From a candidate division FCPU426 bacterium (GTDB lineage: Bacteria > Oederibacteriota > Muellerivitia > Muellerivitales > Muellerivitaceae), in assembly GCA_963719085.1 (NCBI GenBank), contig CAVRAL010000001.1, positions 896,001-960,000 on the forward strand: a DNA stretch of 64,000 nucleotides, written 5' to 3'. This document shows, one piece after another, positions 20,901-62,329 of this stretch. A program made the position numbers and the translations under genes. Position 1 is the stretch's first letter. The number at the start of each line of letters is the position of its first letter. The notes below the pieces were generated by a model, which saw only the letters and a program-made list of their open reading frames with translations, searched no databases and had not been told where the DNA came from.

Positions 20901-22844
20901 CGGGGATTGAGGAGTATAGGTGGGACTAGGGGTGAATGTAGGCGTGGGAGTAAAAGTTGGCGCAAAACCTTGAAGATCATCGAACAAGTTGCACTGCGGA
21001 CTCCCCAAACCCGTGGTCAGGTCATAACCGGAAACGGCTTGATATTGGCTTGGAACGGTACCCCAATAATTGTTACTACCAATTTGAATGTCATGAAAAT
21101 CGTTGGCATAATTCGTCAACGCCAATGAATATAACGCGGGATTCGCAAAACCAATCGGTCCCTTCCCAGCGGATGCCGCTTGTTGATTAACCAAAGCCAT
21201 AAATCCCGCCCAAAGAGGCGCGGCAGCACTGGTTCCGCCAGTGCCATAAGCTTCACCCATGAAATAAAACATGATGTCATCCGCGACTAACGCGACGTCC
21301 GGAATATTCCGATACAAAGACGACGCGGAGTTCGTGCCATTCACAAATGGCACTTGATACGTCGGGATCGGAACTGGGGTGTAAATCGGCCCGCCACAGA
21401 TTCCACCACTACTAACCTCGTTGGGTGCTGGCGTAAGGGTCGCCGAGGGACCCGGAGAATCATTCCAAACCGTTTCCCCCGACCAAGTTTCGTTACTTCC
21501 AGTCGCTAAATTGGTTCCACCGACAACTGTGAAATTTGAAAGTTGATCCATGGGCGCTTCGATGACCGGCTGCGGGTCACTGGTGACATAGGCGCCTAAA
21601 TCACCTGAAGCCTGGAAAAAGGATTGTCCATCCGCTTGAAATTGGAGAATTGAAGTTTGTAAGTTACCATCTGTGGAATAAGTTGGCCATGACCATGAAC
21701 TGCTAATGAGATTACAAAATGGGGCATTTATAGAACTAGGGTTGGCTATAGCGGCAAAAACATCATCAGGTATAAAATTATTGTCATTACCTTCAAAAAC
21801 CGCTAACTGGGATAACCCCGGCGCCATCGCAATTACCATCTCTACATCCAGGGTCACTTCACTGGTATAGGCATAAGGACTTTGTGGTGGATTCGCGTCC
21901 GGAACTCCACTGAATCCATCCAATAAGTAGTTGTTTATGGAAAGTGTCGGAGCAGGCAATCCATAAGCGACCGCGGCGCTCTCGTAGTTGTTAATGTCAT
22001 TTGATAGATACCCGTCAAATTCCACCAAGGCAACCGATTGGCCTGTTCCAGTAAGAGAAACACAGGGTACATAAGCCTTCCTGAAATCCTCACCAATATA
22101 ATAACCGTAAAAAGAACCATCGAGAGCGTTTGTGGTCAGATTTCCCTTTTCAGCTCCTGGCGAAGTTTTTACGGACTTCGACGGACTCAGAGAGGACGGC
22201 AAAACATTCCGAGTAGATTTCATCGACGACTTTGGTTGTTCATAATTTTCAAGTCCGCTAATATGCAAAATCGGGACGTCCAAATCCAGGGAAGGCTCCA
22301 CATCGGACGCACGAAACAAACTACCATCGGGCCGTTTATAATTATTCAGATGCAAATAAAAAGTTTTTTCAATGTCGGCGGCGGTTCCACTGACATCAAT
22401 CAAGGCTCGATTGGTATATGCCCTCTGTATCTTTAGATTATGAGAGATTAAAAAATTCTCTACCGCTCTAAAATCAGATTCAGTCGGACCAAACATTTCC
22501 GTAAATTTTTCCGGAGTTAAAAACTTTCTGAAGTTTAGGCTTTTAGGATCGTAAATATCCTTCAATAGGTATTGCAAAGCTTCCTGGTTTCTCAACGGCA
22601 AGCCGATAGCGAGATTCAGTTGAGTGGAATCGGGAACACTCCCGACCAATTGTGAAATGATTCTCGCCGGAAGCATATGACCGTGAAGCTGTTGCCTACC
22701 AGTCGCCTGAGCGTAGGAGGGAAAAACGACAGTCAAAAACATCAAGAGTAATGTCAGATTTAAACCGAAATGAGATTTCCGTGAGTGGTTTGGGGAAGGA
22801 TTCAGTTTTCGGTTCATTGTCTTCGGCACCATATATAAATCCAT
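17946..22844 (-). CDS. Secreted S53 (sedolisin/kumamolisin-like) protease with kelch-like and NHL propellers, (T-x)n stalk and CTD/FlgD-Ig-like C-terminal domain
   Basis: Pro-domain (FRKFLTPEKFTEMFGP), EVTLDVE, ASGD.G, RNIPDV, GGTSAAAP, GYDLTTGLGSP; NDVWSSSDGINW repeats; GQF..P.GIA NHL repeats; VASGLYLY...KVIVLH end. Start may be 22817. Confidence 0.9.
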   Translation of the reverse strand: MDLYMVPKTMNRKLNPSPNHSRKSHFGLNLTLLLMFLTVVFPSYAQATGRQQLHGHMLPARIISQLVGSVPDSTQLNLAIGLPLRNQEALQYLLKDIYDPKSLNFRKFLTPEKFTEMFGPTESDFRAVENFLISHNLKIQRAYTNRALIDVSGTAADIEKTFYLHLNNYKRPDGSLFRASDVEPSLDLDVPILHISGLENYEQPKSSMKSTRNVLPSSLSPSKSVKTSPGAEKGNLTTNALDGSFYGYYIGEDFRKAYVPCVSLTGTGQSVALVEFDGYLSNDINNYESAAVAYGLPAPTLSINNYLLDGFSGVPDANPPQSPYAYTSEVTLDVEMVIAMAPGLSQLAVFEGNDNNFIPDDVFAAIANPSSINAPFCNLISSSWSWPTYSTDGNLQTSILQFQADGQSFFQASGDLGAYVTSDPQPVIEAPMDQLSNFTVVGGTNLATGSNETWSGETVWNDSPGPSATLTPAPNEVSSGGICGGPIYTPVPIPTYQVPFVNGTNSASSLYRNIPDVALVADDIMFYFMGEAYGTGGTSAAAPLWAGFMALVNQQAASAGKGPIGFANPALYSLALTNYANDFHDIQIGSNNYWGTVPSQYQAVSGYDLTTGLGSPQCNLFDDLQGFAPTFTPTPTFTPSPTYTPQSPTPTPTFGMCAAGQPGNTWTSLTTNAPTDLLGSAGNNFVFDPQDGLGPRMWVITSGGQAYSSFNGINWTLVGTIPISPQNMQGEQSVVFNGQIWVVGGVYAYAGPGGTTSNVWHSSNGSTWTKVTSAAPFPPRFDFGLLAYNNKMWVIAGDPSLSYGDPYTNQYLNDVWSSSDGINWTETSASANFGPRWSPTCLTFNNQMWVIGGTYSSWASGIAYNDAWSSSDGINWTQATNSAFTSGRFGASGVVCGNSMWIVGGTGSGGTLSDVWVSTNGANWSETDTATPFSFSSGTGIVISYLGYVWSVLTNDTSTTPWTWNSPCCELATPTPGAPTATPTPTPQPMFCPSLQWGGYGTSNGQFIQPANIAVDSANGWVYVSETTNNRIQKFTTSGTWLATWGGLTAGSGVGQFNQPAGIAIGPGGNVYIADFGNNRIQVLTSGGTYVTQWGTAGSGNGMFEGPVGIAVDGSGNSYVSDSRNYRIQVFNSSNGYVTQWGSNGAGNGQFNDPLGVALDGLGYIYIVDYRGTTFGPPFSNDRVEKFTTGGTYITQWGSQGSGTDQFYGPYGVAVGPCGNVYVTDWQNNNIQAFTNTGSYLGTFAPTGNSQFNQVNGIAFDSSNNLYTTELISDRVQKFSPCGLNCPISSTQTPTQSPTATSTATPTFTITPTNTATFTTTATQTPSFTSTPTITPTPSFTSTNTPSPTMTITATTTGTPTLTPSLTPTITSTATPTITKTGTFTPTITATTTPTFTRTVTFTLTITRTSTVTKTPTATKTVTQTPTITRTPTITRTPTITPSKTSTWTPTKTKTITMTPTITRTFSPTITKTPTKTPTITPTRTPTKTPTPSGEIAMAEAVSITEPHITETPTSSPTLTMTPTLPITPTPTTAPEDTVSVLAIPNISTDEEPIRFQVQLTQEAQIELILYTISGEKVYEGKMTGTVGLNNLIWKLNNGEGADVASGLYLYAIEVSNRSFDYHKTGKVIVLH

Positions 22845-42270: not shown

Positions 42271-43002
42271 TTAAACCGCTTCCGCCTCAAAATGATGCGG
42301 GGTTCGTCCATAAACAACCGCCTTCACCACCGACACGCCCGCTTGGCGTAAAACCTTCGCGCATTCTTCCAGCGTCGCCCCAGTCGTTAAAACATCATCC
42401 ACTAAAACCACTTGGGAAGCCGGCGGCTGAGAGCCGACATAACGATAGGCGCCCTTGGGATTGGTCAGTCTCTTTTGACGGCTCAAGGACATCTGCGCCG
42501 GGGTTGAAATCGTTTTAACAATAGTTTCTTTTAGGGGTTTACGAACCCGCTTCGCGATCGCGCCCGCCAGCAATCGGGCCGGATGATAACCCCGCTCCCT
42601 TTCTCGTTCGGAACTTAAGGGCACGGGCACAATCGCGTCGACGCCCTCCCAAAAAGAATCGGAACTCTCCGCTGTCATTTTTTCAGCCAAAACTTCCGCT
42701 AAAGCTTCCATCCCTTCAAACTTAAAGGCGTGATGCGCCAACCGCAAAGGGCCCCTATAAGCGCCAAAGGCGCGGGTTTCCGTTAAAAAATAATCACGAT
42801 CCCCGCAATCCCGGCATCGGGGACGGACCGATCCCTCAAACGCTCCTACGGCCAAAGCGATTCCACAATGGCCGCAACGAACGCCTTCGTAAGGTTCAAC
42901 GGAATCAAAACAAGAAGCGCAAAGGACGTTCGAAAGGCCTTCGCGGAAGGGGTCGCCGCAGTAGCGGCAGACTTTAGGAAATAGCGTGTCGATCAAGAAC
43001 AT
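42271..43002 (-). CDS. comF: ComF family protein (double zinc ribbon plus PRTase)
   Basis: Four CxxC motifs, VPVPL...RERGY, VLVDDVLTTGATL. Confidence 0.93.
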   Translation of the reverse strand: MFLIDTLFPKVCRYCGDPFREGLSNVLCASCFDSVEPYEGVRCGHCGIALAVGAFEGSVRPRCRDCGDRDYFLTETRAFGAYRGPLRLAHHAFKFEGMEALAEVLAEKMTAESSDSFWEGVDAIVPVPLSSERERERGYHPARLLAGAIAKRVRKPLKETIVKTISTPAQMSLSRQKRLTNPKGAYRYVGSQPPASQVVLVDDVLTTGATLEECAKVLRQAGVSVVKAVVYGRTPHHFEAEAV

Positions 43003-43017: not shown

Positions 43018-46000
43018 CTACTTGACGACCGCCACTTTATCAATTTCCTGGTGGTCGGGCATCTCGGTGGTGATGAGATAGACACCGGAAGCAACTAGAC
43101 TGCCGTTCATATTTTTCCCATCCCACATCAAATCGGGATCCACCAGATGGGTATATACACCAACCGACGCAAAATTTCTGTGGACCAATTGCTTGATGAA
43201 TGTTCCCGCCAAGTTGTAAACCTTGATCGTCACCATTCCCGCTTTGGTGATCGCCAACCGAAAATGAACCGCATTGTTCGCCGTACCGGGACGAATCGCG
43301 TTTAAATCCAAGGCGTTGCTGGCACCTAAGGCAAAAGCAGTTACCACGTTATAAGATGAAAAATGCGCTAGGGCGGTCGGAACATCCGGCGGATTATCAA
43401 AAGCTTGCACTAAATAAGAAAAAGCATTGCCCCCAACAATGGTCTCCGGATCAGAATAAGTCACCAAACCCGCGGAAGGTTGACTAATCCCCGTGGTAAA
43501 GGAAACCGGATAAGTGGCTCCGCCGTCCACCGACTGGTAAACCACGTAGCCGCCTAAGGGATACATGGTGGTCGGGTCAAAAACCGTCACCGGCGGCGCG
43601 GTCAAAGGAACCGCCAAATTCGCGGGGTACCAACTCAAGGTATTCGCGTTCCCGCTTTGGGCAATCGTCACCGTTCCATCATTTACCACCGGCGGTTTGG
43701 CGGGCAACGCGGTTACCGAGGCGCTTAAAGCGGTGCCGCCAGACACCGTATCAATCGTCTCCATTTGATACACATAAAAGGTTTTATCGAGCAAACCCGA
43801 ATCGGTGTAATTATTGCCGGTGATCCCTGTTTTCACGACTTGGAAACTTCCCAAGGTGTCCGCCCCTAGTTTTCTAAAAAGCGTATAGCTTACGGCGCCG
43901 CTGGGCGCGCCTTGGAAATCCCAGCGAAGTTGGACAAGGCCATCCCCTGAAATGGACGTCAAATTTTGAACCGGTTGCGGAACCACCACTTCACTGACCG
44001 AAGCCGAAAACCCGCTTTGGACCCCGCCTCCCGAAATCGCCGCGACTTGATAAAAGTAAGTCCCCGAGTCTGAAACGGCGCTATCCGAGTAGCTGGTGGC
44101 CGCCGCTCCCGGAACTTGGGCGAGTTCCACAAAAGTCGGGGTCGCCGAGGGCGTGGCAACCGCCCGGTACACCACATAACCTGATACCGATCCCGGCGTG
44201 GGCGTCATGACCGGCGAAAACTGGGCCCAGACCAGCTCATTGTGATCCGCCCCCGGAGTCACGCCAAGGGACGGCGGATGAATGGCGATGATCCCCGCGG
44301 TCACCGGCGAGCCTTGGCCCTGGTTGTTATAGGAAGTCATGGAATAGTAATAAGCGGTCGCGGGTACCACTTGACTATCTACGGTGGTAGCGCTGGAGGG
44401 CCCCAGCGGAACAAACAGCGGGGTCGGTGTGGCCCCGGCGGTGGTGGACCGGTAAATTTGATAAGCCGTCACAGAAACATCACCGGCCGGCGCGGCCCAA
44501 GCCAAGGTCACCGCGGAAGGGCCCGCCGATAAGTTAAGCGCCGAAGGCGGATTGGGCCACATCGTGACCGCGGCGTTCCCCACGACGTTTTGATTGGCCG
44601 CGATTCCCAACCGCGAAGGAACCACCCGGTAATAGGTGACATAGCCCTGGGTTAAAGTCGCCGGGTCCGAAAGGAAGGAGGTGGGCGACGATACGGTGCC
44701 GATGAGGTTCTCAAAAGGAAAGCCGGAATCGGTCGAACTATAAATGGTGTAGCTGTCCACGTTGGATGGGTAGGTCAACCCGGATATCCAAACCACCGGC
44801 GGAATCGCAGGGGTCGTTCCCGGTGTGGGTGAAAATCCCGGAGGCGGCGAGAGACTGACCGTCGGGGTCCAAAGCGGCGCCGAAAAAGCGGTAGCGGGCA
44901 TGCTCGCGTCACTGAATCCTTGGTGATTGATGGCGGCCACGCTGTAAGACGAAATGGTTCCGGGAGTTTCCGTGGCCTGCCAAACAAAAATCGGCGTCGG
45001 CGTGGGGCTCAACAGGGTAACCGGTGCCCCGTTATAAGTGGCGATCGGAGTTTGGGTCGCGTTCAAATAAATGGCGTAAGCCGTGACCGCGTCCGTGGTC
45101 GGGTTGGGCGGCCAGTTCAAAGTGGTCTGCGTCACTCCCCCAATCGCGGTCACACCTTGAGGAACGGTTGGCCAAGTTAAGCTGCTTCCTTCCGGAGCCG
45201 GAGTGGAAGGCGGGTAGTTAGGATAAAGCGGGCTTTCGGCGACCAATTGACCGGAGGCGTTCGATCGTGCTGTGATCCGGTAATAGTAAACAATTCCAGG
45301 TGTTAGGGTGGCGTCTGGATAAGTCAGTTGGGTAATCGGCGCTGTGCCAATCAGCGAAAAATTGGCCCCCGAAGTCTCGGAGCGATAAACACCATAAGAA
45401 TCCACTGAACCAAAACCCGGGGTTAAAGTCACGTTCGGCGTGGCATTCCAACTCACCTGCATTTTCCGGCTACCGGATGCCATTACCGCCGTCACAGCGT
45501 AAGAAGGCAACCTAATCCCCGATAAAGTGACCGGCGGCGCGCTGGACCCATGGGCGTTTTGAGCGAAAAGATAATCAAAGACTGAGGAATGCCAAAATGG
45601 GGCTGTTTGAGTAGTCGATTGAGTAAAGGTATAGGTTGCGGGACCAGCGGCGTCGATCGCTAAAGGCGTTGACGTCGGCGTAGCACTCGAAGTGGTTCCA
45701 AAATCCGGACCATAAACTTGATATCCAGTCACTGCGTCGGTCAAAGGATTCGCAAGCCAGCTATAGGTTAAGGAATTCCCGTCGCCGGTTAAAGGTAAAA
45801 GCACGGGCTGGAATGGCCCTGAATTGTTCGGGCCCGCCGTCACTTGATTGGAAGCCGATGACAAATCCGAAGTACTTCCCACCCCATCGATCGCCCCGAC
45901 TTGATAAATGAACCTCGTTCCCGCGGAGGCGCCCGTGATGAAATCATTATAAGAAGATTGGGCGGCTGAAACGGTGGCAATGGGCGTGGGCGTCACGACT

Positions 46001-47517
46001 TGAAACTCCGTCACGGGTTCCCGATAAATCCCATAGTCTTGGATGGGTCCATAAAACCCGGCCGTCGTTCCCGGCCAACTGACGACCACTTCATTGTTCC
46101 CTGTCGGCCCTGTAGCGGTGACCGCCGAAACGGGGGTTGGGGCCAAAGCCAGGGTTTCGGGCGTCGGCACGCCCATAGCCCCCTCATGGCTGGTCGTGTC
46201 GTAGGGCGCGACCCAATAGGAAATGCCATTGGCGCTGGCGTCGGACGTGTCAACCGCTTGAAGTGTCGCCGCGGCCGCCAAGACCACAGCGAAGGGGGTT
46301 GGAGTCGCCGTGGCGGACGCCGCGAAGGTCAAGGTTCCGGTCGGCGTCGGCGCGGTCGGAGGAGGCCCGTTAAGGCTTTTATAAATCCTATAGCCTTGAA
46401 GTCCATAAATGCCGTTCGAGCCTTGGGACCAAGTGATCGTCACGGCGCCGATTGCAGGACCTGGGGTCACCATGATGGGGCTGGAAACCACCGGGCCGTA
46501 AAAAGAGACCGGAGCCAAATTGGAACCGGTGTTGCCGTTGGATCCCATGGCCGATACCGAGTAATCATATGGAAACGCGGCGGAACCCGAAAACGGAACG
46601 GTCGTATCGTCATAAACATAGGTCGGCGTCACGCTGGCCACCGGAACCTGCAAAGTGGCGACGGGCGTGTTGTTTCGCATCACTTGATAAACCGACACCA
46701 CTCCGGACGCCACTTCGGACGCGGCCGGTCCATTCCAAATCAAATGAACACCATAGCCGCCTCCGCCGATAATGGACGCCGACAAGTTGGGCGCCGCCGG
46801 GGCCAAGGTGACCGGTTTGCCGGGAGCGGAAGAAAAATCCGGAACACCGCTGATATTTCCGGCCGAGTCTTGGGCCAAAACCACATAGAAAAAGTAAGAA
46901 TTGGCCGGACTGCTGACCGACGAATCCGTAAATTGATTGGTGACGGCCATGGCATAAGTCACCGGGTCAGCCGTCAAAACCACCGAACCCGGAACCGGCG
47001 AGGGAGTCCCCGTTACCGTGGCGATCGGGACCACATACCGGTAAATTTGGTACTCGGTCACCGGGTAAGTGGAAAGCGGGATTCCCCAGTTGATATTGAC
47101 GGCGTTTGTAAAAAAATTATCCAACTGGACCGATTGGATGATCGTAGGAGGGCTAAAAGGGGTGACCGTGACCGCCGAGGAAGGGCCCAGGCTATTATTG
47201 AACCCGGCCAAAAGATACTGGTAGGTTCTTCCATTGGTGACCTGGCCGTCCACAAAAGCCGGCGTCGCGGCGGCCGACACGATGGCCACCGGCGTCAGCG
47301 TCCCCGTGGGGGTCGGCGCGGCCGAAACATTTCGATAAAGATAATAATCCGTCGCCGCCGGCGTGAGCTCCTGCCAACTGAGGCTGACCGCCCCATCACC
47401 CGCCGCCGCGGTGAAAGCCGAAGGCGTCGGAAGGGTCTGAGCGGCCAAAGGCGCCGCCAAAACCACCGCCAAAAGGATTCCCCGCATGAGGGCTGAAGGT
47501 TTCAAGTCTTGTCCCAT
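43018..47517 (-). CDS. Large secreted fibronectin type III repeat protein with CTD/FlgD-Ig-like C-terminal domain
   Basis: Signal peptide; roughly a dozen L.W...Y.IYR...Y.D...Y.Y.V.A repeats; C-terminus IKVYNLAG..IK.L...WDGKN.NG..VASGVY...DKVAVVK. Confidence 0.85.
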   Translation of the reverse strand: MGQDLKPSALMRGILLAVVLAAPLAAQTLPTPSAFTAAAGDGAVSLSWQELTPAATDYYLYRNVSAAPTPTGTLTPVAIVSAAATPAFVDGQVTNGRTYQYLLAGFNNSLGPSSAVTVTPFSPPTIIQSVQLDNFFTNAVNINWGIPLSTYPVTEYQIYRYVVPIATVTGTPSPVPGSVVLTADPVTYAMAVTNQFTDSSVSSPANSYFFYVVLAQDSAGNISGVPDFSSAPGKPVTLAPAAPNLSASIIGGGGYGVHLIWNGPAASEVASGVVSVYQVMRNNTPVATLQVPVASVTPTYVYDDTTVPFSGSAAFPYDYSVSAMGSNGNTGSNLAPVSFYGPVVSSPIMVTPGPAIGAVTITWSQGSNGIYGLQGYRIYKSLNGPPPTAPTPTGTLTFAASATATPTPFAVVLAAAATLQAVDTSDASANGISYWVAPYDTTSHEGAMGVPTPETLALAPTPVSAVTATGPTGNNEVVVSWPGTTAGFYGPIQDYGIYREPVTEFQVVTPTPIATVSAAQSSYNDFITGASAGTRFIYQVGAIDGVGSTSDLSSASNQVTAGPNNSGPFQPVLLPLTGDGNSLTYSWLANPLTDAVTGYQVYGPDFGTTSSATPTSTPLAIDAAGPATYTFTQSTTQTAPFWHSSVFDYLFAQNAHGSSAPPVTLSGIRLPSYAVTAVMASGSRKMQVSWNATPNVTLTPGFGSVDSYGVYRSETSGANFSLIGTAPITQLTYPDATLTPGIVYYYRITARSNASGQLVAESPLYPNYPPSTPAPEGSSLTWPTVPQGVTAIGGVTQTTLNWPPNPTTDAVTAYAIYLNATQTPIATYNGAPVTLLSPTPTPIFVWQATETPGTISSYSVAAINHQGFSDASMPATAFSAPLWTPTVSLSPPPGFSPTPGTTPAIPPVVWISGLTYPSNVDSYTIYSSTDSGFPFENLIGTVSSPTSFLSDPATLTQGYVTYYRVVPSRLGIAANQNVVGNAAVTMWPNPPSALNLSAGPSAVTLAWAAPAGDVSVTAYQIYRSTTAGATPTPLFVPLGPSSATTVDSQVVPATAYYYSMTSYNNQGQGSPVTAGIIAIHPPSLGVTPGADHNELVWAQFSPVMTPTPGSVSGYVVYRAVATPSATPTFVELAQVPGAAATSYSDSAVSDSGTYFYQVAAISGGGVQSGFSASVSEVVVPQPVQNLTSISGDGLVQLRWDFQGAPSGAVSYTLFRKLGADTLGSFQVVKTGITGNNYTDSGLLDKTFYVYQMETIDTVSGGTALSASVTALPAKPPVVNDGTVTIAQSGNANTLSWYPANLAVPLTAPPVTVFDPTTMYPLGGYVVYQSVDGGATYPVSFTTGISQPSAGLVTYSDPETIVGGNAFSYLVQAFDNPPDVPTALAHFSSYNVVTAFALGASNALDLNAIRPGTANNAVHFRLAITKAGMVTIKVYNLAGTFIKQLVHRNFASVGVYTHLVDPDLMWDGKNMNGSLVASGVYLITTEMPDHQEIDKVAVVK

Positions 47518-50500
47518 TTAAAACCGGGCCTCCCCGCTGACGGTGGCCTCGACTAAGTCGTATCCCAATGTGGGCGCGTAGTAATTGTTCAAATGCTCGT
47601 AGGTAAAACCAATCCCCACCCGAAGGTTCTTCAACGCGTTGTAATTAAGGGACAGTGTACCATTGTACCTTTGGGTCACAAGCTGGTTATAGCTGTAGGA
47701 CGATTGATTGTTGATCAGCTCCGCCAAAAGCACGAGCCGGGCTTCCAAGGGATTTTCCAACTTGATCTTCCAATGGGTGAAGGGGACGTGGATGGTCTGG
47801 TTGTCCAGGAATTTTTGGTTGTACTCGATCGAATACTGGTCATCCTGCATCGAGGTATAAACGCCCTGGGAAGTTTGATCCCCCCGGGTGTATTGAATGC
47901 GGATATTGCCCTGGGCCCCCTTATCGATGTCATAAGGCAGGACGAGGGAGATCACGTCGCTGTTGGAGAGCAAAAACGGGTTGTTGTTGCTGTCATATTG
48001 ATAGTTTTGGGTGCGGGTGAATTGGACTTGGGCGGAGTTGATGTTGAGATTGATCAAGGGCAAGGTGAACAGCTTTTTGCTCCAAACCGTGGTGAAGCCG
48101 AAGGTATTGATATCCTGCGTGGTGGGATTGGTCCCCAAGGCCACTACGGACAAGGTCTCGCCCCAGGACCCCGTGGGACGCATATCCCACCCATCCAAAA
48201 TATTGAAACTGGCGTTCAAGCGGTCGGTGATGGTCTCGCTCCCCAAGTAATCCTGCGTCACGGGCCGCGACACCAGCCAAGTTTGGTCAAAATCCAAGGG
48301 CTGGCTCGCTTGGAAACTATTCGGGTTGATCGATTGAATGGTGGCGTTGGAACTTTCGGTGCGGCCCGCGTCCACGGACAGGTTGGTTTTTTGCAGGAAA
48401 GGAAGCCAGCTGGCCGGCGTGAAGCTGAGCAGGTAATTGATGCTGTTGGCGTTGGTGAATTGGGGCTGGGGAAAAGAAACATAGTCATATTGGACGCTGC
48501 CCGTGTAATTCACCGAGGGGATCAGGCCCGGAATGCCGCGGTAAACCACACCGGCCGTCGGTTGATAGCGGTTCTGGAAAGGCGTGTAATTTTGATAGAA
48601 CATCGTGGTCGGCATTCCCGGCGTATTGGTGTTGCCCACCGCGTCGACCAGGGTGAGGGTATAGCCGGGGGAAATCACCAGGTTCTTAATCAACTCGGTG
48701 GTGTTGGTCCAGCCATAAACCTGGTTGCGCGTGGTCCGGTCGTAATTATAAAGGTCCGGGAAAGTGACCCCTTCCGCGATATTAAAATCCTGGCTGTCAT
48801 GGGTGATCGAAAAAGTCTCGGTGAATTGATTCGTACCGATGGGAATGGAAAATATCTGATTCGGGGCGTCGTAAGTGGAGGCCAAGGCCACGATCTGCTC
48901 GGCTTTGTTGGTATTGCCCTGCACTCCAGGCTGACTCAAATAAACATCCTCGTACCGGTCTTTTTCCTCGTTGGTGCTTTCGGAAATACGCACCGAAGTG
49001 AACCGGCCAAAGCTCGGCCCCAAATCCTTCGTATAGCCGATGCTTCCCGTGGTGCTGTCCACATAGCTGTTGGGCAAAAGCTCGAAATTGGGATTGGACG
49101 TGTCCGCCGCCTCCGTGTAAGTGTCCTGATGGGTGTAAGAAAACTGGGTGACCAGCGGCTGGGAGAAAAGACTGACAGCGTTGGAGGAATAATCCGCGCC
49201 CAATTGAGTGGAATGCTGGAACCGGGTCGCCTGTTGATCCAACTGGGTGAATCCCGAGTCCACTTCCCGGTAGCGGGCGTTGATCGTGGCGAAATTGTCC
49301 CCCACCAGCAAGGTCGCGTTGGCGCGGCGGGCCACGCCCGCGCGGCTGATGGGATTGGTGGTGCGCAGGTTGTTGATCCACAGCTCGTTGGTCGTCGCCG
49401 TCGGGGCGTTGGGCGACAGAACCCCGAAGGAGATCTGGCTGACCCGGTTGATGAACGGTGTTCCAAAAGTGCTTCGATTACCGTCCGAACCGTCCAGGTC
49501 GATGATCACGGATTTCCAAAGGAGATTCTGATAAGCCGTGGTCAAGGGGATATTGTATTGATAGTAATCCTGCTGGTCGTTCCCCAAGCGCACGAAAAGC
49601 ACATCCCCCGGGCTAAAGGAAACCGCCTCCAGGTCAAATCGCATTTGGCTGTAAATGGTGAAATCCAGGGTTTGGCTGAAAGTGCGGGTGGCATAATAAA
49701 TTGGGCGTCCATTGATGTTGCCGGGAGGATCGAAATCCGTCGAGGATAAGTTGTAATTGATTTGAAGGGCGCTTTCCTTGGCCGTGATGGAGCTTTGATC
49801 TTCCCCTTGGGTGAGGGTCACAAACCGCAGGGTCGGGTTGTAGCTGGAATTGATCGGCTGGTTGACCGTGGTGACGTCGAATTTCGACGTGTTCACCGTC
49901 ACCCCCTGGTCCACATTGGCCGTCGGGTCTACTTGCAATTGCCAAAGATTATGTGTAAAGGCCATGCTTTCTAAAAGAAAGTAACCATCTTGGGCCGCCG
50001 CCGAATTTCCAGTGGTCCACAACCGCACCGAACGTACCACTTGGGAATTAGGCACTCCTACCGAATGGAAGAAATAATTGACGCCCGCATCCGTGGTGTT
50101 GGTGCTGTCGGGCGGCGGCGCTGTATTGGCCGGGAGATTTACTGGAATTTTCACTTCTTTCCAACCGTTCCAGTTCGCGTGAATCCCATACTCAAAATAA
50201 GCGTCCGCGCCGTCCAAGGTGTTGTCACTGTTCTGGTCTTCGGTGATAAAAACGTCAGTACCCACACCTTCCTGTGTAGAAGTGGTCTCAGTGGAAATTC
50301 CCGTAATGGCCTGCAAGATTCCCGGGCCTGCCAATGGATTCGTGAAATAAAAACTGGGAATGCCATAAGCGGGGTTGGGATGCGCCTGATTCGGGATAGT
50401 AACCCCATTAGCGTCAACCGTCGTATCCTGGTCCAATATCCCATTGCCATTGGTGTCCTCGGCAAAAGAACCAAAATCCGCCATGATCCACTTGTCCTGG

Positions 50501-53364
50501 CCGTCGTTGTAAATCCAAGACTCAAAAAAGACCGTGTTTGAAAGATCAGTTCCCAAGGTCGATAAGGTTTGCTTTAACCCCGCCCAGCGCTGGTTGGTTA
50601 AGTTTGAATAGGGAAACTCAAGTACACTCACGATGTCGGTCCCGACTTTAGTGGTCGCGTAAATATGTCCGCCGGCCCCAGGAACCGTAACTCCTGGAGG
50701 CGACGTCGTGCCATTTGTCATCTCTTGCTCCGAAATGGTTTGGAATTGGAAGCCGTTGTTATAATTAAAGAACCGGGCCCGGTTATTGGTCGAGGCATTT
50801 GAGCTTCCATCGTAAGTGGTCGGACCCAAAAACGCCGGAACCGATTCGGGAGGCGGCGAAACCAGCCAGGAAGTGGCGTTCACCGAAAGGTTGGTCGCGC
50901 TGTCGATTCCATCCATGTTGTCGATCATGGCCACGCCGGTCTCGCCTTCGGTGTCGAAAGTATTGGGATCGTAAAAGCTCTTGGCTACTTCCCCGGACAA
51001 CTGCAGGCTCAGGGGCGGGGTCCAGTTTTCCAAGCCCGGGATGAGGCTGGTCAAGGCCTTCACCGAATTGCGGTCCACGTCGAAGCGGGCGTCGGCGTCA
51101 ATGATGGCCAGGTCATTGGGCTCACTGCCGATTTGGGGGACATCGGTAGGCTGTTGGGTGCCGCTATAGAGGAAGGTCGACCCCAGGAAAAAATGGTCGG
51201 TCACGTCATATTCGGCCCGGGTGCCGAGAATATTTTCCTGCGCGAAGGCGCCGAAGGGTGAGTACTCATAAGTGACTACGACCTGGCTGTCCGGCAGGAG
51301 GATGTTCTTGTTCACGAAGTCGAGGTTTCCCGAGGTGTAATCGAAAGAATAATCCGTATCCCGGTGCAAAAGCCGGCCGTCCAAGTAAACCGTTTCGCTC
51401 CCGAGCAGGATGTTGAAACGGCCCATGTTGAAGAAATTCTGCCGGGTGTCATAGACCAATTGCATGCGGTAAAGGCTGGTCGGGACCGTGGTTTGGCTGT
51501 AAACGTCGTTGGGCCCCGTGCCGTTGGTATTGTCCGGCGGAGGATTGGCGAAAGGCCTCTCGGGGAAGGACGCGTTCTGGGTGTCGGTCACGACGAGCAG
51601 GTTCAAATCGGTGTTCACATTGACGCTCCAACGGGCCCCCACCGCCGTGCCGGTCTGGACCACGCTGTTTGTTCCCTGGTTGATGATTTGGAACGAGAAA
51701 TTGGGATCCTGGTTGGGCGGCACGATGGGAACGGTGCCCAAGCTGAAATAATTCAACAAGTAAAGCGCGCTGACATCGGCCGGATTGGAATTGTCTTTGA
51801 TCAAATGGGGCTGATTGGGTCCCGGCTTCATCATCCCGCCCGGAGGCACGGTAAGGTTCGGGTTGTTGATGGGCTGGTTCAAGTCCAGGATATTGCCGTT
51901 GACGTCTTCCCCGACCCTTTGCCCATCCTGCTGGACGAAAGCCACCGCGATGCGGGAGCTGATGTTCACCGGCGTGATGAAGGTCACGATGCCCGTGGTG
52001 TAATCAATGGTGTAATCCCGGCCCGGTAAAAATTTTTGGAAGGGACCGATATAATTCGCGCTCTGGGGCGGTAATTGGCCCGTGCCCGGATCGACCCAAA
52101 TCTGTTCCGTGCCGTTTTGCGGCAGGTCCACGTTCACCACTTGGCCGTTCAGGGTTTGATTATTCACCGACTTCGTCATCATGAAATATTTATAAGGGAT
52201 AAATTGAATGTCGTTGAGGGTCAGGTTGACCTGCACCTGGTTGCCCTTGAAAACCTTGGTCTCCGAGAGCCCCTTGGTTTGGGCGAAAAAGGAAGTCACC
52301 CGCAAGTCATCGAATTTCAGTTTGGACTGGATGCCGAAAAGCTGCTTATTGAACCCGGCGAACTCCGTGTTGGGAAGCACCAGATTGAGGTCGCCGAAAG
52401 ACACTTCCTGTACCGGGCTGTTCTCGTCCCCGTGATACACGATTGAGATTTGCTGCTGGGTCTGGTCCAATCCCCCGGTCCGGTTGACGTCGCTGTAATC
52501 CACGTGCACATCCACGTTTTGCCCCACCTTGCCGTCCAAGTTCACGACCAATTCCTGGTTCACATTGGTGGAATTGGAATTGGCCGAGAGCCCGTTCAGG
52601 CCGTCCGGGCGGTCGAAATGCTGGAAAGTAAAATCAGCCTCGATCTGCTTATAGCCCTGGATCGACAATTGGCTGTCGGCGGGAAGCTGGAATTTGAAGA
52701 GATTCTGGTCGGGAATCTTCAACTCGGTTTCTTCCGCCGGGGTGGGGGTCGGCGTGGGCGTTTCCAGAACCCCCGGGGGCGCAGGAATGTCCAACCCCTG
52801 GGGCGTCACGGCCAACTCGTCCGAAAAGGCGCTCACATTTCCCTGGGCGTCGATGGAGGCCACGACGTAAAAATAATCATCCCCGTTCTCGGGCGCGGGC
52901 AAGTTCGTGCCCGCCCCGTCGAGAAAATAAGGCGCGTTCAGCGGCTTGGGATTGAGCAATCGATAACCAAACCCCGGCATGCGGGAGCGGTAAACCTCGT
53001 AACCCACCACCGGGCCTTGGGCCGGGGCGGCGTTCCAAGAAAGATAAACCCCCTCTTTCAAAAGTAAGTTCGCGAGCCCGGTGGGCGGCGGCACCGACGA
53101 CGCGGCAGCCGTGGCGGCCGCGCCGGTCACGCTGGCCGGGCCCGCGGTCGCGACCGGTACTTGAAGCACTTGCTTTTCCTGGGTGGTCGCGGTGGGAACC
53201 GCGTAATCGTTATTAGCTGTTTGCGAAAAAACCGCCGGGGGCAAAAACAACAAACCGCCCGCCAAGACAAGCCATAGCGCGGCCCCCGAACCTCCGCGCG
53301 GAAAGCCGGAAGCCGTCGGACCCGGCAAAAACCCTAGGATGAGCGTTAACTTCTTTTTCAGCAT
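47518..53364 (-). CDS. sprA: SprA/Sov-like giant outer-membrane protein (T9SS translocon homolog) with N-terminal FN3-like domain
   Basis: Q.L.VNLDGKVG..V.V.VDY, FGD..L.LP.TEF.G..KQLFGI..KL.F..L.VT.FFAQ.KG, GSETV.LDGR.L.R..DY..DY..G, GTRAEY, LSGEVAKS, IDNMDG, TEDQNSDNTLD blocks; C-terminal Phe. Confidence 0.8.
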   Translation of the reverse strand: MLKKKLTLILGFLPGPTASGFPRGGSGAALWLVLAGGLLFLPPAVFSQTANNDYAVPTATTQEKQVLQVPVATAGPASVTGAAATAAASSVPPPTGLANLLLKEGVYLSWNAAPAQGPVVGYEVYRSRMPGFGYRLLNPKPLNAPYFLDGAGTNLPAPENGDDYFYVVASIDAQGNVSAFSDELAVTPQGLDIPAPPGVLETPTPTPTPAEETELKIPDQNLFKFQLPADSQLSIQGYKQIEADFTFQHFDRPDGLNGLSANSNSTNVNQELVVNLDGKVGQNVDVHVDYSDVNRTGGLDQTQQQISIVYHGDENSPVQEVSFGDLNLVLPNTEFAGFNKQLFGIQSKLKFDDLRVTSFFAQTKGLSETKVFKGNQVQVNLTLNDIQFIPYKYFMMTKSVNNQTLNGQVVNVDLPQNGTEQIWVDPGTGQLPPQSANYIGPFQKFLPGRDYTIDYTTGIVTFITPVNISSRIAVAFVQQDGQRVGEDVNGNILDLNQPINNPNLTVPPGGMMKPGPNQPHLIKDNSNPADVSALYLLNYFSLGTVPIVPPNQDPNFSFQIINQGTNSVVQTGTAVGARWSVNVNTDLNLLVVTDTQNASFPERPFANPPPDNTNGTGPNDVYSQTTVPTSLYRMQLVYDTRQNFFNMGRFNILLGSETVYLDGRLLHRDTDYSFDYTSGNLDFVNKNILLPDSQVVVTYEYSPFGAFAQENILGTRAEYDVTDHFFLGSTFLYSGTQQPTDVPQIGSEPNDLAIIDADARFDVDRNSVKALTSLIPGLENWTPPLSLQLSGEVAKSFYDPNTFDTEGETGVAMIDNMDGIDSATNLSVNATSWLVSPPPESVPAFLGPTTYDGSSNASTNNRARFFNYNNGFQFQTISEQEMTNGTTSPPGVTVPGAGGHIYATTKVGTDIVSVLEFPYSNLTNQRWAGLKQTLSTLGTDLSNTVFFESWIYNDGQDKWIMADFGSFAEDTNGNGILDQDTTVDANGVTIPNQAHPNPAYGIPSFYFTNPLAGPGILQAITGISTETTSTQEGVGTDVFITEDQNSDNTLDGADAYFEYGIHANWNGWKEVKIPVNLPANTAPPPDSTNTTDAGVNYFFHSVGVPNSQVVRSVRLWTTGNSAAAQDGYFLLESMAFTHNLWQLQVDPTANVDQGVTVNTSKFDVTTVNQPINSSYNPTLRFVTLTQGEDQSSITAKESALQINYNLSSTDFDPPGNINGRPIYYATRTFSQTLDFTIYSQMRFDLEAVSFSPGDVLFVRLGNDQQDYYQYNIPLTTAYQNLLWKSVIIDLDGSDGNRSTFGTPFINRVSQISFGVLSPNAPTATTNELWINNLRTTNPISRAGVARRANATLLVGDNFATINARYREVDSGFTQLDQQATRFQHSTQLGADYSSNAVSLFSQPLVTQFSYTHQDTYTEAADTSNPNFELLPNSYVDSTTGSIGYTKDLGPSFGRFTSVRISESTNEEKDRYEDVYLSQPGVQGNTNKAEQIVALASTYDAPNQIFSIPIGTNQFTETFSITHDSQDFNIAEGVTFPDLYNYDRTTRNQVYGWTNTTELIKNLVISPGYTLTLVDAVGNTNTPGMPTTMFYQNYTPFQNRYQPTAGVVYRGIPGLIPSVNYTGSVQYDYVSFPQPQFTNANSINYLLSFTPASWLPFLQKTNLSVDAGRTESSNATIQSINPNSFQASQPLDFDQTWLVSRPVTQDYLGSETITDRLNASFNILDGWDMRPTGSWGETLSVVALGTNPTTQDINTFGFTTVWSKKLFTLPLINLNINSAQVQFTRTQNYQYDSNNNPFLLSNSDVISLVLPYDIDKGAQGNIRIQYTRGDQTSQGVYTSMQDDQYSIEYNQKFLDNQTIHVPFTHWKIKLENPLEARLVLLAELINNQSSYSYNQLVTQRYNGTLSLNYNALKNLRVGIGFTYEHLNNYYAPTLGYDLVEATVSGEARF

Positions 53365-53395: not shown

Positions 53396-54145
53396 TCAAT
53401 CCAGCCCCAACTTTTCCCTCAGATCGTCCAGCCGCTCCCGGCTGATCGGAAGCCGGGTTTTCGCGGCGTCGGACAAAACCGCCAAATACTTCCGGTCCCC
53501 CTCGTGTTCCAGTTCCTTGAGATAATCCAAATTAATCAGCGCGCTGCGGTGGACGCGAAGAAACTTCCGGGGATCCAGCCGCTTGGAAAGCGTGTCCAGG
53601 CTGTCGTCGACTAAAAGTTCCTGGCCTTCCACCAGAATCACCACGTAATGGTCGCGGGCCACCACCGCCGAAATGAGCGCGGGATCAAAAACCCGGTACT
53701 TGGCGCCGCACTTGACGGCCATCCGGCGCTTGGCTTGTCCCTCCTCCATTTTTTCGTAAAAACGCGCCATCTCCTCGAAGGCCGCGGGACGCCGGCGCTT
53801 GCGGATTTTTTCCACGGTCTCCGCCAGCCTTTCGGGGGCCACGGGCTTGACCAGATAATCGGCCGCGGACAGCTCAAAGGCTTTCAAAGCGTGCTCGCTG
53901 TAAGCCGTGACGAAAACCACGCTGGGGCCCTCGCCGGCCCAGGCCTGGGCCGTTTCCAACCCATTCAGTTCGGGCATCTCAATGTCCAAAAAAACCAAAT
54001 CCGGTTTTAAATCCTGGGTCGCCTGCAGCGCCTCCAAACCATTGGAGGCCTCCCCCACCACTTGGAGGTCGGAAAACCCGGAAATCATCCGGGCCAACCG
54101 GGATCTGGCCGGCGCCTCGTCATCCACAATCAGTACCCGGATCAT
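53396..54145 (-). CDS. LytTR family response regulator
   Basis: VDDEAPAR, LDIEMP, TAY.EHALKAFE, FLRVHRS, PISRE. Confidence 0.96.
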   Translation of the reverse strand: MIRVLIVDDEAPARSRLARMISGFSDLQVVGEASNGLEALQATQDLKPDLVFLDIEMPELNGLETAQAWAGEGPSVVFVTAYSEHALKAFELSAADYLVKPVAPERLAETVEKIRKRRRPAAFEEMARFYEKMEEGQAKRRMAVKCGAKYRVFDPALISAVVARDHYVVILVEGQELLVDDSLDTLSKRLDPRKFLRVHRSALINLDYLKELEHEGDRKYLAVLSDAAKTRLPISRERLDDLREKLGLD

Positions 54146-55290
54146 ATCGCCTCTTTTTTCAAATCCGGGATGAGCCCCGGAAAATGCACCACCATCCGCG
54201 TCCCGTGGGGGGACCGGGGAAGAACCTCGATCGTGCCGACCTGGGAGTAGCTCAACTCCAAACGTTTGCGGCAGTTTTCAAGCGCCGTCCCCGAACCCCG
54301 GTAGGAGGAGTTTCCAAAACCCACGCCGTCATCCTCCACCCACACTTTGAGGCCCAAGCCTTCCCGCTCCCAACCCACCCACAAACTTCCGCCCTGGGCC
54401 CTCGACGAAAGCCCATGCTTGACCGCGTTCTCCACTAAGGGCTGTAAAATAAGCACCGGCACCTGGATCGTTTCTTTTTCCCGCTCATCCCCCTTTTGGA
54501 TCGCGACTTTAAGGCGGGATCCGAATCGGGCCTGCTCGATTTCCAAGTAATCCCGGCAGAAATCAAGCTCTTGGGCCAAGGAGTGGACGCTTTTACGGCT
54601 GGCCGCTAAAACCGCTTGGAAAAGTCCCGAAAGTTTAACGACCACCCTTTCGGCCTGGGCGGGATCGGCCGGGATCAAGGCCGCCACCGTGTTCAAGGTA
54701 TTAAATAGGAAATGCGGGTTCATCTGGTCCTTCAACTTGGTCAAAAGGGCCTGGAGCCTTTCCTTTTCCATTTCCTCGGTTTTCAACTGCCCTGCGGCCA
54801 CCGCGTCCCGCAAGTCCTGCCAGGAGATAAAAAAGAAACAAATGAGCAGCAACAGCCAACCGCCGAATATTTCTTTGCCGTAGTAAAACCATTGAAAGCG
54901 GGGCTCGATAGCGGGCCCGATATAAATCCAATTAATCAAGGACACCATCAAGTGAAGGGCCAGAATGAGGCCCGGGGGAATCAAAAAAGCCAGGAACAAC
55001 AGGTACCAACCCATCCCGTGCCGCGGCCGGTCGCGGCCCGACCAGGAAATCCAACCCCGCTCCATTTCCAAATAAAGCCGGATCGCTCCCATGCCGAACA
55101 AACAAACCAGCGTGGCCTCAAGAAAATCCCATCCCCACCGGAAAAAGATGGAATCAATGGATTTTTCCCCGGAAAAGAAGCTGACTCCCAGCGTCCAGAG
55201 GGGATTCACGATGAGCAAAAGCTTCAGGAAAGAACGGCCATAATCCCGCGCGAAGTCCAGTGAAAGAAATTTTTTCCATCCTTGGGGCAT
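54142..55290 (-). CDS. LytS/YehU-type sensor histidine kinase
   Basis: Four TMs, QMNPHFLFNTLN, YLEIEQARF, LQPLVENAVKHG, DDGVG. Start likely ATG 55290 (AAAGGA SD). Confidence 0.94.
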   Translation of the reverse strand: MPQGWKKFLSLDFARDYGRSFLKLLLIVNPLWTLGVSFFSGEKSIDSIFFRWGWDFLEATLVCLFGMGAIRLYLEMERGWISWSGRDRPRHGMGWYLLFLAFLIPPGLILALHLMVSLINWIYIGPAIEPRFQWFYYGKEIFGGWLLLLICFFFISWQDLRDAVAAGQLKTEEMEKERLQALLTKLKDQMNPHFLFNTLNTVAALIPADPAQAERVVVKLSGLFQAVLAASRKSVHSLAQELDFCRDYLEIEQARFGSRLKVAIQKGDEREKETIQVPVLILQPLVENAVKHGLSSRAQGGSLWVGWEREGLGLKVWVEDDGVGFGNSSYRGSGTALENCRKRLELSYSQVGTIEVLPRSPHGTRMVVHFPGLIPDLKKEAI

Positions 55291-55456
55291 GCCCCATCCT
55301 TTCTTGTCAACCCGGCGGACCGTCCGCGAATCGCCCCAAATCATAGCAATATTCCCCAAAAGACGATGACTCATTTTCGCCCGCCCCCGGCCCATTTATT
55401 CAAACGCCCCTTACTAAATATCCCACAAAAAAAGGAGCTTTAAAAAAGAAACCCCG

Positions 55457-58618: not shown

Positions 58619-59392
58619 TTACCGGACGATTCCGCGCTGGGATTGGGTGAGGAACTCGACCAAGGTTTTGATCTCCTCCAAAGGCGGAAAATCCCGGTTC
58701 AGCGCCGTGACGGCCTCTTGAAGCGTTAGGTTACTTCGGAAAATCACCTTATGGGCTTTCTTCAAGTGATCAATGGTTTCTTTGGGGAAATTCGCCCGCT
58801 CCAACCCGACCTGGTTGATCCCGGCGATATGCAGGGGTTCCCCGCCCGCGATCATGTACGGCACCACGTCTTGAACCGCCCGGAAGCCGCCGCCGATCAT
58901 GGCGTATTTTCCCACCCGCACGAATTGATGCACCGGGGTGACGCCCCCGATATTGGCGTAATCATCGATCCGGGCATGGCCGCCCAGGGTCGCCAAATTC
59001 GCCAGCTTCACATGGTTGCCGACCACGCAGTTGTGGCCCACATGGCTTTGGATCATGAGCCAATTGTCGTTCCCGATTACGGTCTTGGTGCCTTCGCCCG
59101 TGCCGGGATTGATGGTGGCGTATTCCCGGATCAGGTTGTTATCCCCGATCTCCAGCCAGGTTCGCTCGCCCGCGTATTTGACGTCCTGGGGCTCGCTGCC
59201 AACCACCGCACCCGTGAAGATACGGTTATTTTTGCCTAAAATCGTGTTGCCCGTGATGACCGCGTGCGGACCCACGGACGTGCCGTCGCCTATGGTGACG
59301 TTGCCGTCGACAATGGCGTAAGGGCCGATTGTCACGCCCGCGCCTAACCGGGCTTTGGGATCCACGATGGCCGTCGGATGAATTTGAGACAT
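58619..59392 (-). CDS. lpxA: UDP-GlcNAc O-acyltransferase
   Basis: IHPTAIV, hexapeptide repeats, PQDVKY, HVGHNC, VHQFVRVG. Confidence 0.98.
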   Translation of the reverse strand: MSQIHPTAIVDPKARLGAGVTIGPYAIVDGNVTIGDGTSVGPHAVITGNTILGKNNRIFTGAVVGSEPQDVKYAGERTWLEIGDNNLIREYATINPGTGEGTKTVIGNDNWLMIQSHVGHNCVVGNHVKLANLATLGGHARIDDYANIGGVTPVHQFVRVGKYAMIGGGFRAVQDVVPYMIAGGEPLHIAGINQVGLERANFPKETIDHLKKAHKVIFRSNLTLQEAVTALNRDFPPLEEIKTLVEFLTQSQRGIVR

Positions 59393-60732
59393 TAGACCAT
59401 CTCCCCGCTTTGTCCCTTATCCACCAGGGCGCAGGTGATCTCGGCCTCCGCCACCACTTGACCGTCCACCAGCGCCTTGGCCGCCAGTTTGCAGATTTTC
59501 GTGCGGAGGACGATCACATCCACTTCCAAGCGCAGCTGATCCCCGGGGTTGACCGGCCTTCGAAACCGCGCCCCGTTGATGCCAGCCAGGTATTGGATTT
59601 TGCTGTTGTCCCCGTCCCGGGCGGCCAAAACCGCGACGCCGCCGACCTGGGCCAAGGCTTCCAAAATCAAAACTCCCGGCATGACCGGGTGGCCAGGAAA
59701 ATGACCCTGAAAAAAAGTCTCGTTCATCGAGACATTTTTAAGCCCCACCGCCCTTTTACCGGGTTCCAATTCCAGGATCCGATCCACTAAAAGAAAAGGA
59801 TAGCGGTGCGGCAAAAGCTTTTGAATCTCGATGATATCAAGCATGGTTTCTCCCTTTTTCTGGTTCGACGGCCCGGCGGCGGCGCTTTTTTTCCCGAATT
59901 TTTCCTCCAAGGCCTTCGCCAACTCCACATGAAAACGGTGGCCGGCTTTTTTCACCGTAATCTTGCCTACCAATGGCCGGTTGAGCAGGGTCAAATCGCC
60001 CAAAAGATCCATGGTTTTATGCCGGACAAACTCATCCACGAACCGAAGCGGTCCGTTCAAAACCCCTTTTTCCCCCACCACCAAGGCGCAATCCAAATCG
60101 CCGCCCTTGATGAGTCCTTGCTGGCGCAAAGCTTCCACTTCCTTCTCAAAGCAAAAGGTGCGGGCCGGGGCCAACTCTTTCTCAAAGTTTCCCGGCGTAA
60201 TCGCGACCTGGACCTGTTGATGCTCCAATCCCGGATTCGGAAAGGAAATGGTCACATCCAAAAGGAGGCCGTCAAAAGGCTCCGCTTTCAAAAACACGTC
60301 CCCAAATTGAAGCTCCAGGGTTTCGGTAATGACCAAGGGATCCACCTTGTCCCCCTGCTCCACCCAACCGGCCTGATCCAGCGCCCGGCAAAAGGAAACC
60401 GCGCTTCCATCCATGATGGGCATTTCCTCGCCGGTCATCTCAACTTTTAAGTTGTTGAGGCCCAAGCCCTGGACGGACGCGAGGAAATGCTCAATGGTAT
60501 GGATCTTGGCGTTTTTCTCTCCCGTCAAAGTCGTTCCCCGGGCCGTGCTGGTGACCCCATAGGGCGTCAGGAGGATCTCCGCGCCGAGATCTTTTCGGAA
60601 AAAGCGGATCCCGCTTCCCGCCGGGGCCGGCGAAACGGTCACCGCGCATTCGGAGCCCGTATGAAGCCCCTTGCCTTGGAAGGAAAAAGCTTTTTTGATC
60701 GTGCGTTGTTGGGGAAATGTTTTAAGCGTCAT
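59392..60732 (-). CDS. lpxC-fabZ: Bifunctional LpxC/FabZ
   Basis: [27 protein letters not shown] (LpxC) in frame with [23 protein letters not shown] (FabZ). Confidence 0.96.
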
Positions 60733-62308: not shown

Positions 62309-62329
62309 GAACAACTCCTTAAAAATAGT

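Follow-up and report, generated by a model that had tools for sequence, protein, structure and literature searches.

A SprA/Sov homologue coupled to an FN3-rod gene in a candidate division FCPU426 bacterium, and its probable place in a reduced type IX-like export pathway

We analysed a 64,000-nucleotide (nt) stretch of DNA, hereafter the window (contig CAVRAL010000001.1, positions 896,001 to 960,000, assembly GCA_963719085.1), from a candidate division FCPU426 bacterium, an uncultured soil organism with flagellar genes (5 contigs, 3.04 Mb, 99% complete). One of its open reading frames (ORFs), at 47518-53364, encodes a genuine homologue of SprA/Sov, the outer-membrane translocon of the T9SS (type IX secretion system). 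The adjoining ORF encodes a chain of FN3 domains ending in a C-terminal export domain (CTD), which we refer to as the FN3-rod protein. Homology, fold, gene order, co-occurrence and repeat orthology, all of them observed directly, point to a reduced T9SS-like outer-membrane pathway, motor-less or differently powered, of which the FN3 surface rod is probably the co-encoded signature cargo. SprA would be the translocon of this pathway, the PorV/PorQ-family barrels encoded elsewhere in the genome its likely carriers or anchors, and some 30-40 proteins with a type-A-like CTD its cargo.

The SprA homologue and its FN3 arm

The family assignment follows from three lines of evidence. First, the NCBIfam model TIGR04189 for the Sov/SprA translocon, with an equivalog cut-off of 200 bits, matches the protein in 4 stretches at 231.8 bits (E 1.1e-68). 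Second, a profile of 27 homologues aligns over its positions 88-1660 with residues 60-2054 of 6H3I_A, the SprA chain of F. johnsoniae (E 2.6e-160). Third, the AlphaFold2 model of residues 749-1948 (mean pLDDT 81.9) shows a long series of strands of 12-20 residues, and its best four Foldseek matches, 8GL8, 8GL6, 6H3I and 6H3J, are all SprA chains (E 9e-39 to 1e-32, TMq 0.41-0.45), the next match standing at 9e-6. The earlier note on this DNA had recognised ordered SprA/Sov-like blocks and a terminal Phe in the 1948-residue product and had named TIGR04189 and the fold as checks. The blocks, the TIGR04189 match and the terminal Phe are borne out, the protein ending in ...GEARF; for the giant (36-strand) barrel fold, the modelled residues 749-1948 give a suggestive result. 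The Pfam check that it had also proposed fails, as no Pfam family matches at E<=0.01, SprA_N (PF14349) included. SprA_N is present in some close relatives (P0030, P0034) and in most distant matches.

Single-sequence searches reveal little of this kinship. Searching the PDB sequences with phmmer gave no match, and the protein atlas matches all remain below 0.9. One SprA match of 26% identity is labelled 'Elusimicrobia bacterium', and the only related locus found in a contig search is partial and lies in a metagenome-assembled genome.

Compared with the solved SprA structures of F. johnsoniae (6H3I, 6H3J, 8GL6, 8GL8) and with Sov of P. gingivalis, the protein is alike in homology over most of its length, in fold matches, in the C-terminal Phe and in carrying an N-terminal extension that would likewise be periplasmic. 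It differs from F. johnsoniae SprA in being about 450 residues shorter (1948 vs 2403 residues) and in having no Pfam SprA_N match. The hosts also differ, the present one being flagellated and having no detectable GldLM, GldKN or PorU.

The N-terminal extension consists of an FN3 domain and a Pro/Thr linker, as the earlier note had proposed. Residues 89-186 match an FN3 hidden Markov model (HMM) built from the repeats of the neighbouring protein (42 bits, E 5.6e-11), and the linker that follows contains ETPTPTPTPAEE. The domain aligns across 12 relatives, among which the linker varies in both length and sequence. Since the alignment with F. johnsoniae SprA begins only downstream of the FN3 domain, we regard this arm as an addition to the translocon. 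According to the excerpted text of PMC10994853, the extended N terminus of F. johnsoniae SprA lies in the periplasm, where a SkpA trimer and SprE take hold of it. By analogy, the FN3 arm would hang in the periplasm and may serve there for docking, the extension being an FN3 domain with a Pro/Thr linker here and a segment held by SkpA/SprE there.

A conserved motif, ...SP.EEIQ[VI]LDAID..., lies between the signal peptide and the arm in relatives L023-L033, and its counterpart in the window (QEKQVLQVPVA, about 53170-53210, minus strand) is weaker. Its reading as a TonB-box-like or Skp-binding element was dropped for want of supporting evidence. The same excerpts of PMC10994853 report that F. johnsoniae SprA binds a peptidyl-prolyl isomerase subunit and a Skp homologue. 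The window encodes a cyclophilin-type peptidyl-prolyl isomerase with an N-terminal extension of ~100 residues (31536-32270, minus strand) and, in the lpxD cluster, a Skp/OmpH homologue (61769-62398, minus strand). Outside the window, C5:152281-155592 (minus strand) encodes another SprA-like outer-membrane protein, smaller at 1103 residues, with an N-terminal LysM domain and a C-terminal Phe, in which a stretch of 70 residues corresponds to positions 591-660 of the SprA model (33 bits). Its gene adjoins a 401-residue ORF with weak CTD-like matches.

The FN3-rod protein and its pairing with sprA

The FN3-rod protein begins with a Sec-type signal peptide, has no Cys and carries 13 tandem FN3 domains at residues 27-1388, as determined with an iterated HMM. 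No other domain, catalytic and lectin domains included, was found by the Pfam scan and the FN3 HMM. The model of its last two repeats and tail is all-beta (pLDDT 92.5), the tail forming a beta-sandwich at pLDDT >90, and this model is by fold closest to FN3 tandems from titin-type, contactin and fibronectin proteins. A CTD or FlgD-Ig-like end had been claimed for this 1499-residue protein, and it stands with a weak score, FlgD_ig reaching 18.3 bits against a cut-off of 27 and the PorZ tail model E 4.2e-4. Among 38 orthologue tails, FlgD_ig matches 29, CHU_C 3 and Por_Secre_tail 2.

To place the tail within the genome, we used a custom CTD HMM built from 17 orthologous FN3-rod tails. It matches 33 of the 12698 genome ORFs at E<=1e-3, with the domain at the extreme C terminus in 27. 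Of the 18 places in the genome that match TIGR04183 (14 above cut-off), 10 fall in these ORFs. Because the HMM built from FN3-rod tails thus hits TIGR04183-holding ORFs, the tail is, judging from its sequence, a member of the host's general cargo-tag family and is shared with at least 26 other tails. Domains found in the other ORFs with this tail are GH62, GH30, malectin, CBM3 and subtilase (S8), and a PA14/CBM9 protein is matched by TIGR04183, not by the custom HMM. The second CTD protein that the earlier note had placed at 17946 is confirmed as a product of 1632 residues, of which 1548-1631 match the custom HMM (E 7.1e-7) and also the tail of the PorU model. Across the phylum, TIGR04183 tails above cut-off occur in 99/99 genomes with 5-52 matches each.

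The Sec signal and a CTD common to other tails of the genome lead us to read the FN3-rod protein as cargo, which would be exported by Sec and then through SprA to the cell surface. It is the only FN3-chain protein (P0002) among the CTD-tagged ORFs of the genome. Each of its 13 repeats finds its best match at the same position in eight orthologues of 13 repeats (13/13 in seven, 12/13 in one), and similarity between repeats within the protein is lower, with a mean local score of 56 vs 159-194 between positional orthologues. On account of this positional orthology and the low internal similarity, the array appears to be old and fixed, not a fast-changing adhesin repeat. One FN3 domain spans ~3.5 nm, and at that value the surface rod would have a fixed length of ~45 nm.

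Conservation of the pair was evaluated in 60 sprA loci of 60 genomes plus the window; L056, L082 and L090 lacked downstream room, leaving 58 evaluable loci. An FN3-chain gene directly follows sprA in 39/58, a count that includes L079 (contig end, tail unseen) and L080 (ORF call overlapping sprA). All 13 loci of the window's family and order, window included, have the chain, and the orthologues of the other loci (12/12) have 1473-1635 residues and align over their full length at 38-42% identity, SprA itself being 42-56% identical. Repeat numbers are steady within clades. The window's family and order have 13-15, three further loci 13-14, 14 loci of six families 9-10, three loci 7-8 and four loci 2-3. 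In L042 (G094:C2) the chain is divided between an ORF at 7464-9920 (818 residues, 9 FN3 domains, tail-less) and another at 9923-10675 (250 residues, 2 FN3 domains and a tail), for which a frameshift, an error of sequencing or a genuine split could be responsible.

The chain also co-varies with the SprA arm. It lies downstream in 38 of the 44 loci whose SprA has 1 or 3 N-terminal FN3 domains and in 1 of the 14 whose SprA has none. This single locus is L034, where the SprA N terminus, without an HMM match, aligns as a degenerate FN3 domain. Conversely, the arm occurs without an adjacent chain at six loci (L040, L051, L053, L057, L059 and L063). The genomes compared are related and so not independent, and a small number of evolutionary events may underlie the co-occurrence.

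This co-variation speaks for another reading, in which the FN3-rod protein is a fixed subunit of the translocon, either as a gatekeeper or plug with its CTD in the pore, or as a tether or ratchet acting jointly with the FN3 arm in place of the motor-hub. The clade-stable repeat number and position-wise repeat orthology would fit such a subunit, as would the lack of any catalytic or lectin domain and the conservation of its CTD, which scores 122-150 bits within the family, far above the 20-54 bits reached by the tails of other genome ORFs. A docking site is also known from F. johnsoniae, where the SprA N terminus docks a periplasmic SkpA/SprE dish in the excerpted text of PMC10994853. A fixed subunit is, however, hard to reconcile with the absence of the chain directly after sprA in 19/58 loci. 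These absences include 13 short SprA genes (1697-1846 residues, with comF directly downstream in 11), in families whose sampled genomes all retain CTD tails and PorV-family barrels. Moreover, the protein bears an ordinary Sec signal together with a general-family CTD, its sequence diverges faster than that of SprA (38-42% vs 50-56% identity), and its co-occurrence with the arm may reflect one or two evolutionary events among related genomes. We therefore consider a fixed subunit unlikely, while ranking it first among the alternatives.

Because the FN3 protein is absent where the rest of the system stays, it appears to be dispensable in some lineages. The earlier note had proposed it as a dedicated partner of SprA in the form of a plug, a periplasmic conduit or a surface filament. 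The partnership itself holds, in that the link to sprA is old and tight, and the surface filament fits best. Plug and conduit are not supported, given the cargo make-up of the protein and its absence from 19/58 loci of genomes that retain SprA, PorV-family barrels and CTD tails.

PorV-family barrels and the undetected machine parts

Besides pore and tagged cargo, the genome encodes PorV-like barrels. Three proteins score 183, 149 and 100 bits on the PorV/PorQ family model NF033709 (cut-off 90), and the genome as a whole has 17 PorV_fam matches and 14 weak PorV-equivalog matches. PorV_fam is above cut-off in 99/99 phylum genomes with 8-20 copies each, and SprA relatives were found in 94/99. Several of the PorV-like barrel genes adjoin tagged cargo genes. 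No PorV or motor gene lies within the window, just as the earlier note had stated, and the PorV-family genes are located elsewhere in the genome.

Some PorV/PorQ-family barrels are fusions (C1:750663-752438, C4:42078-44117, C1:766735-768183 and C1:1272921-1274231), their partners being an FlgD-Ig-like domain with an OmpA-like peptidoglycan-binding domain, TPR repeats or, judged by eye, an FN3-like domain. Several of the fused barrels share operons with CTD-tagged glycoside hydrolases.

The remaining parts of the machine were not detected. Model searches gave no match in the host genome for GldK, GldL, GldM, GldN and PorP/SprF, and PorU yielded 13 weak matches, all on the tail part of the model. 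Among the phylum genomes, GldM was found in 0/99, GldL above cut-off in 0/99 (one marginal match, E 6.9e-4), PorU above cut-off in 0/99 with matches that are almost all tail-only, and GldK above cut-off in 0/60 of those with >=90% completeness. The weak GldK matches cover only the generic sulfatase-modifying-enzyme domain, which is also matched in Bacillus and Methanosarcina. The Gld negatives lack a positive control; the pipeline itself detects SprA, PorV_fam and the tails, and PorV_fam matches the Bacteroides control. The remote searches suggested in the earlier note were thus successful in part, with PorV-family barrels and CTD proteins found (27 ORFs with a C-terminal tail by the custom HMM, 18 TIGR04183 matches) and PorU and GldKLMN undetected. 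Its proviso that the genome should not be that of an ordinary member of the Bacteroidota with a complete T9SS agrees with the undetected GldK/L/M/N, PorP and PorU.

We looked for substitutes among the known energisers of the envelope. Of the six MotA/ExbB-family genes in the genome, one belongs to the flagellar MotAB and the other five to sets that have ExbD and/or TonB-/TolA-type neighbours, three of these sets adjoining TonB-dependent receptors. As all six have standard partners, these paralogues were rejected as an alternative motor. An 831-residue TPR protein encoded beside an ExbBD-TonB set was likewise rejected as PorW/SprE, since it resembles YbgF/CpoB.

These data bear on the possibility that the host has a complete T9SS, with motor, hub and sortase, which is too divergent for models trained on Bacteroidota and is mechanistically nothing new. 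SprA itself was missed by Pfam and by the single-sequence PDB search, the Gld searches had no positive control, and the 831-residue TPR protein does reach 104 bits on PorW/SprE. That protein is nevertheless better explained as YbgF/CpoB (252 bits), being below the PorW cut-off of 250, and the six MotA/ExbB genes are accounted for by their standard partners. Together with 0/99 genomes for GldM and for GldL above cut-off, a GldK signal confined to the generic sulfatase-modifying domain and PorU matches that are almost all tail-only, this makes a complete but divergent system improbable in our estimate.

Alternatively, the SprA homologue might serve another outer-membrane task, such as envelope or lipopolysaccharide (LPS)-linked biogenesis, its adjacency to a CTD gene being a frozen accident. 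The motor was not found, sprA lies near lptFG and lpx genes in the window, and several relatives (L028, L030, L034, L035 and L037) have lptF immediately upstream of it. Against this, nearly all of the 99 genomes combine SprA with PorV-family barrels and CTD tails, homology with the solved translocon extends over most of the SprA length, and the neighbouring gene bears exactly the tag that the SprA pore recognises in known systems. Such a change of task is therefore very improbable.

A further view supposes that SprA in this phylum works without GldLM and GldKN, and regards the FN3 rod and FN3 arm as a lineage-specific accessory apparatus that, in most lineages, partly replaces the motor-hub. 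It would act as a translocon-attached fibre, or as an entropic or folding ratchet that clears carrier-cargo complexes from the pore. We think this view unlikely, placing it behind the fixed subunit and ahead of the divergent complete system.

Several points weigh against the reduced pathway with the FN3 rod as its cargo. The PorV equivalog model NF033710 is not reached in the host genome, the best score being 83 bits against a cut-off of 250, and the FN3-rod tail falls below every curated cut-off and has no TIGR04183 match. The Gld models matched no genome searched, so that these negatives lack a positive control and divergent motor proteins may be present in the host. No RNA run contains the locus, the run search having listed three soil DNA runs of one study, and the position of the host phylum outside the Fibrobacterota-Chlorobiota-Bacteroidota (FCB) group is likely, not more. 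Finally, a plain cargo would not usually have a fixed repeat number, a highly conserved CTD and co-variation with the SprA arm, and these features allow for a structural role of the FN3 protein.

The locus and related systems

The genes of the locus form a co-directional run that opens with a LytS/LytTR pair and continues through sprA and the FN3-rod gene to comF (Table 1). The kinase gene overlaps the regulator gene by 4 nt, and the 31 nt between the end of the regulator gene and the sprA ATG contain AAGAGG. The LytS/LytTR pair lies upstream of sprA in 9/12 loci of the same family and order, and within this family the LytTR regulator may control the sprA-FN3 operon.

Table 1. Features of the sprA locus and the second tagged protein of the window
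Feature	Position	Strand	Description
LytS-type sensor histidine kinase	54142..55395	-	417 residues; Pfam His_kinase PF06580 + HATPase_c; opens the co-directional run
LytTR-type response regulator	53396..54145	-	249 residues; Pfam Response_reg + LytTR
sprA, T9SS-type outer-membrane translocon homologue	47518..53364	-	1948 residues, terminal Phe
Extra FN3 domain of SprA N terminus, residues 89-186	52807..53100	-	HMM from the neighbour's repeats
Pro/Thr-rich linker of SprA, residues ~187-213	52726..52806	-	translation; contains ETPTPTPTPAEE
FN3-rod protein gene	43018..47517	-	1499 residues: signal peptide, 13 FN3, CTD
13-FN3 array, FN3-rod residues 27-1388	43354..47439	-	iterated HMM
CTD, FN3-rod residues ~1402-1499	43021..43314	-	alignment; ...VASGVYL...KVAVIK
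comF-family gene	42271..43002	-	TIGR00201, DZR_2, Pribosyltran; 15 nt downstream of the FN3-rod gene
Second CTD cargo of the window	17946..22844	-	1632 residues; sedolisin pro-domain, Kelch, NHL (Pfam), CTD

The junction of sprA and the FN3-rod gene reads CGG TTT TAA ATG GGA, the TAA (47518-47520) directly abutting the ATG (47515-47517) as described in the earlier note, with GGGGAGG 11 nt upstream of this ATG. Gene starts were taken from simple ORF calls, and an in-frame Met at residue 11 of the FN3-rod protein offers an alternative start that would leave a gap of 30 nt to the sprA stop.

A comF-family gene on the same strand follows sprA or the sprA-FN3 pair across much of the phylum (loci L036-L088). 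It stands directly 3' of the FN3 gene in 12/13 loci of the window's family and order, window included, and no functional link is evident. Downstream of comF come the genes gap and nfeD, one of the SPFH family, and then pgk and tpi, in that order. Other genes conserved downstream in relatives encode products of ~583 residues (MutL-like) and ~545 residues (lipoprotein-like), judged by eye from their end sequences, and were set aside as having no evident link to secretion.

In the window, lptFG, lpxI, lpxA, a fused lpxC-fabZ, lpxD and skp lie near sprA, from which we conclude that the host is an LPS diderm. The lpxC-fabZ fusion (59392-60732, minus strand) reaches 458 bits with the bifunctional model, whose cut-off is 465. 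Such fusions are typical of Bacteroidota and their relatives, and this one is a possible hint on the affinities of the host phylum. The earlier note had argued against Bacteroidota from a spoVS gene and from TTGACA promoters. A SpoVS homologue is indeed encoded in the window (323-565, minus strand, 101.6 bits) and is the sole copy in this flagellated LPS-diderm genome. The promoter argument is not supported, as 5 promoter-like sites were counted vs 6.7 expected.

In common with the canonical T9SS of Bacteroidota, the host has the pore, PorV/PorQ-family barrels and Ig-like C-terminal sorting domains on hydrolases and proteases. It differs in that the GldLM motor, the GldKN ring, the PorU sortase and PorP/SprF are undetected, and in that the PorV-family barrels are greatly multiplied (17), some being fused to OmpA-like, TPR or FN3 parts. 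Among known cargo proteins, SprB and RemA/RemZ of F. johnsoniae resemble the FN3-rod protein as long, repetitive surface proteins with a T9SS CTD. The FN3-rod gene differs from theirs in being translationally coupled to sprA, in encoding FN3 domains only and in having a clade-fixed repeat number, and its host has flagellar genes rather than detectable gliding genes. The sprB gene of F. johnsoniae, by comparison, lies in an operon apart from sprA. As to how such a CTD is handled at the pore, the RemZ CTD was trapped inside SprA on the PorV loops, and motor energy was deduced to be necessary for release of the carrier-cargo complex from SprA, according to the excerpts of PMC10994853.

In the excerpted literature, the T9SS was found in 60/97 Bacteroidetes genomes and in no other clade (PMC4793230), and was placed in Bacteroidota and at most other FCB phyla (PMC11285876). 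Among the papers searched, a set that is incomplete and gives no proof of absence, none describes SprA or a T9SS in a candidate phylum outside the FCB group. The T9SS appears in PMC8542988 and PMC7031533 only among the references and in PMC13755416 only in the methods, and PMC12204202 has nothing on the subject.

If the reduced pathway proposed here is correct, an uncultured phylum that has SprA, many PorV-family barrels and dozens of tagged cargo proteins, with no detectable motor, ring or sortase, would show the minimal core of the T9SS. A motor-less SprA would then raise the question of what clears the pore in the absence of GldLM. As a natural two-gene unit of a pore and its own cargo, the conserved pair of sprA and FN3 gene would lend itself to reconstitution.

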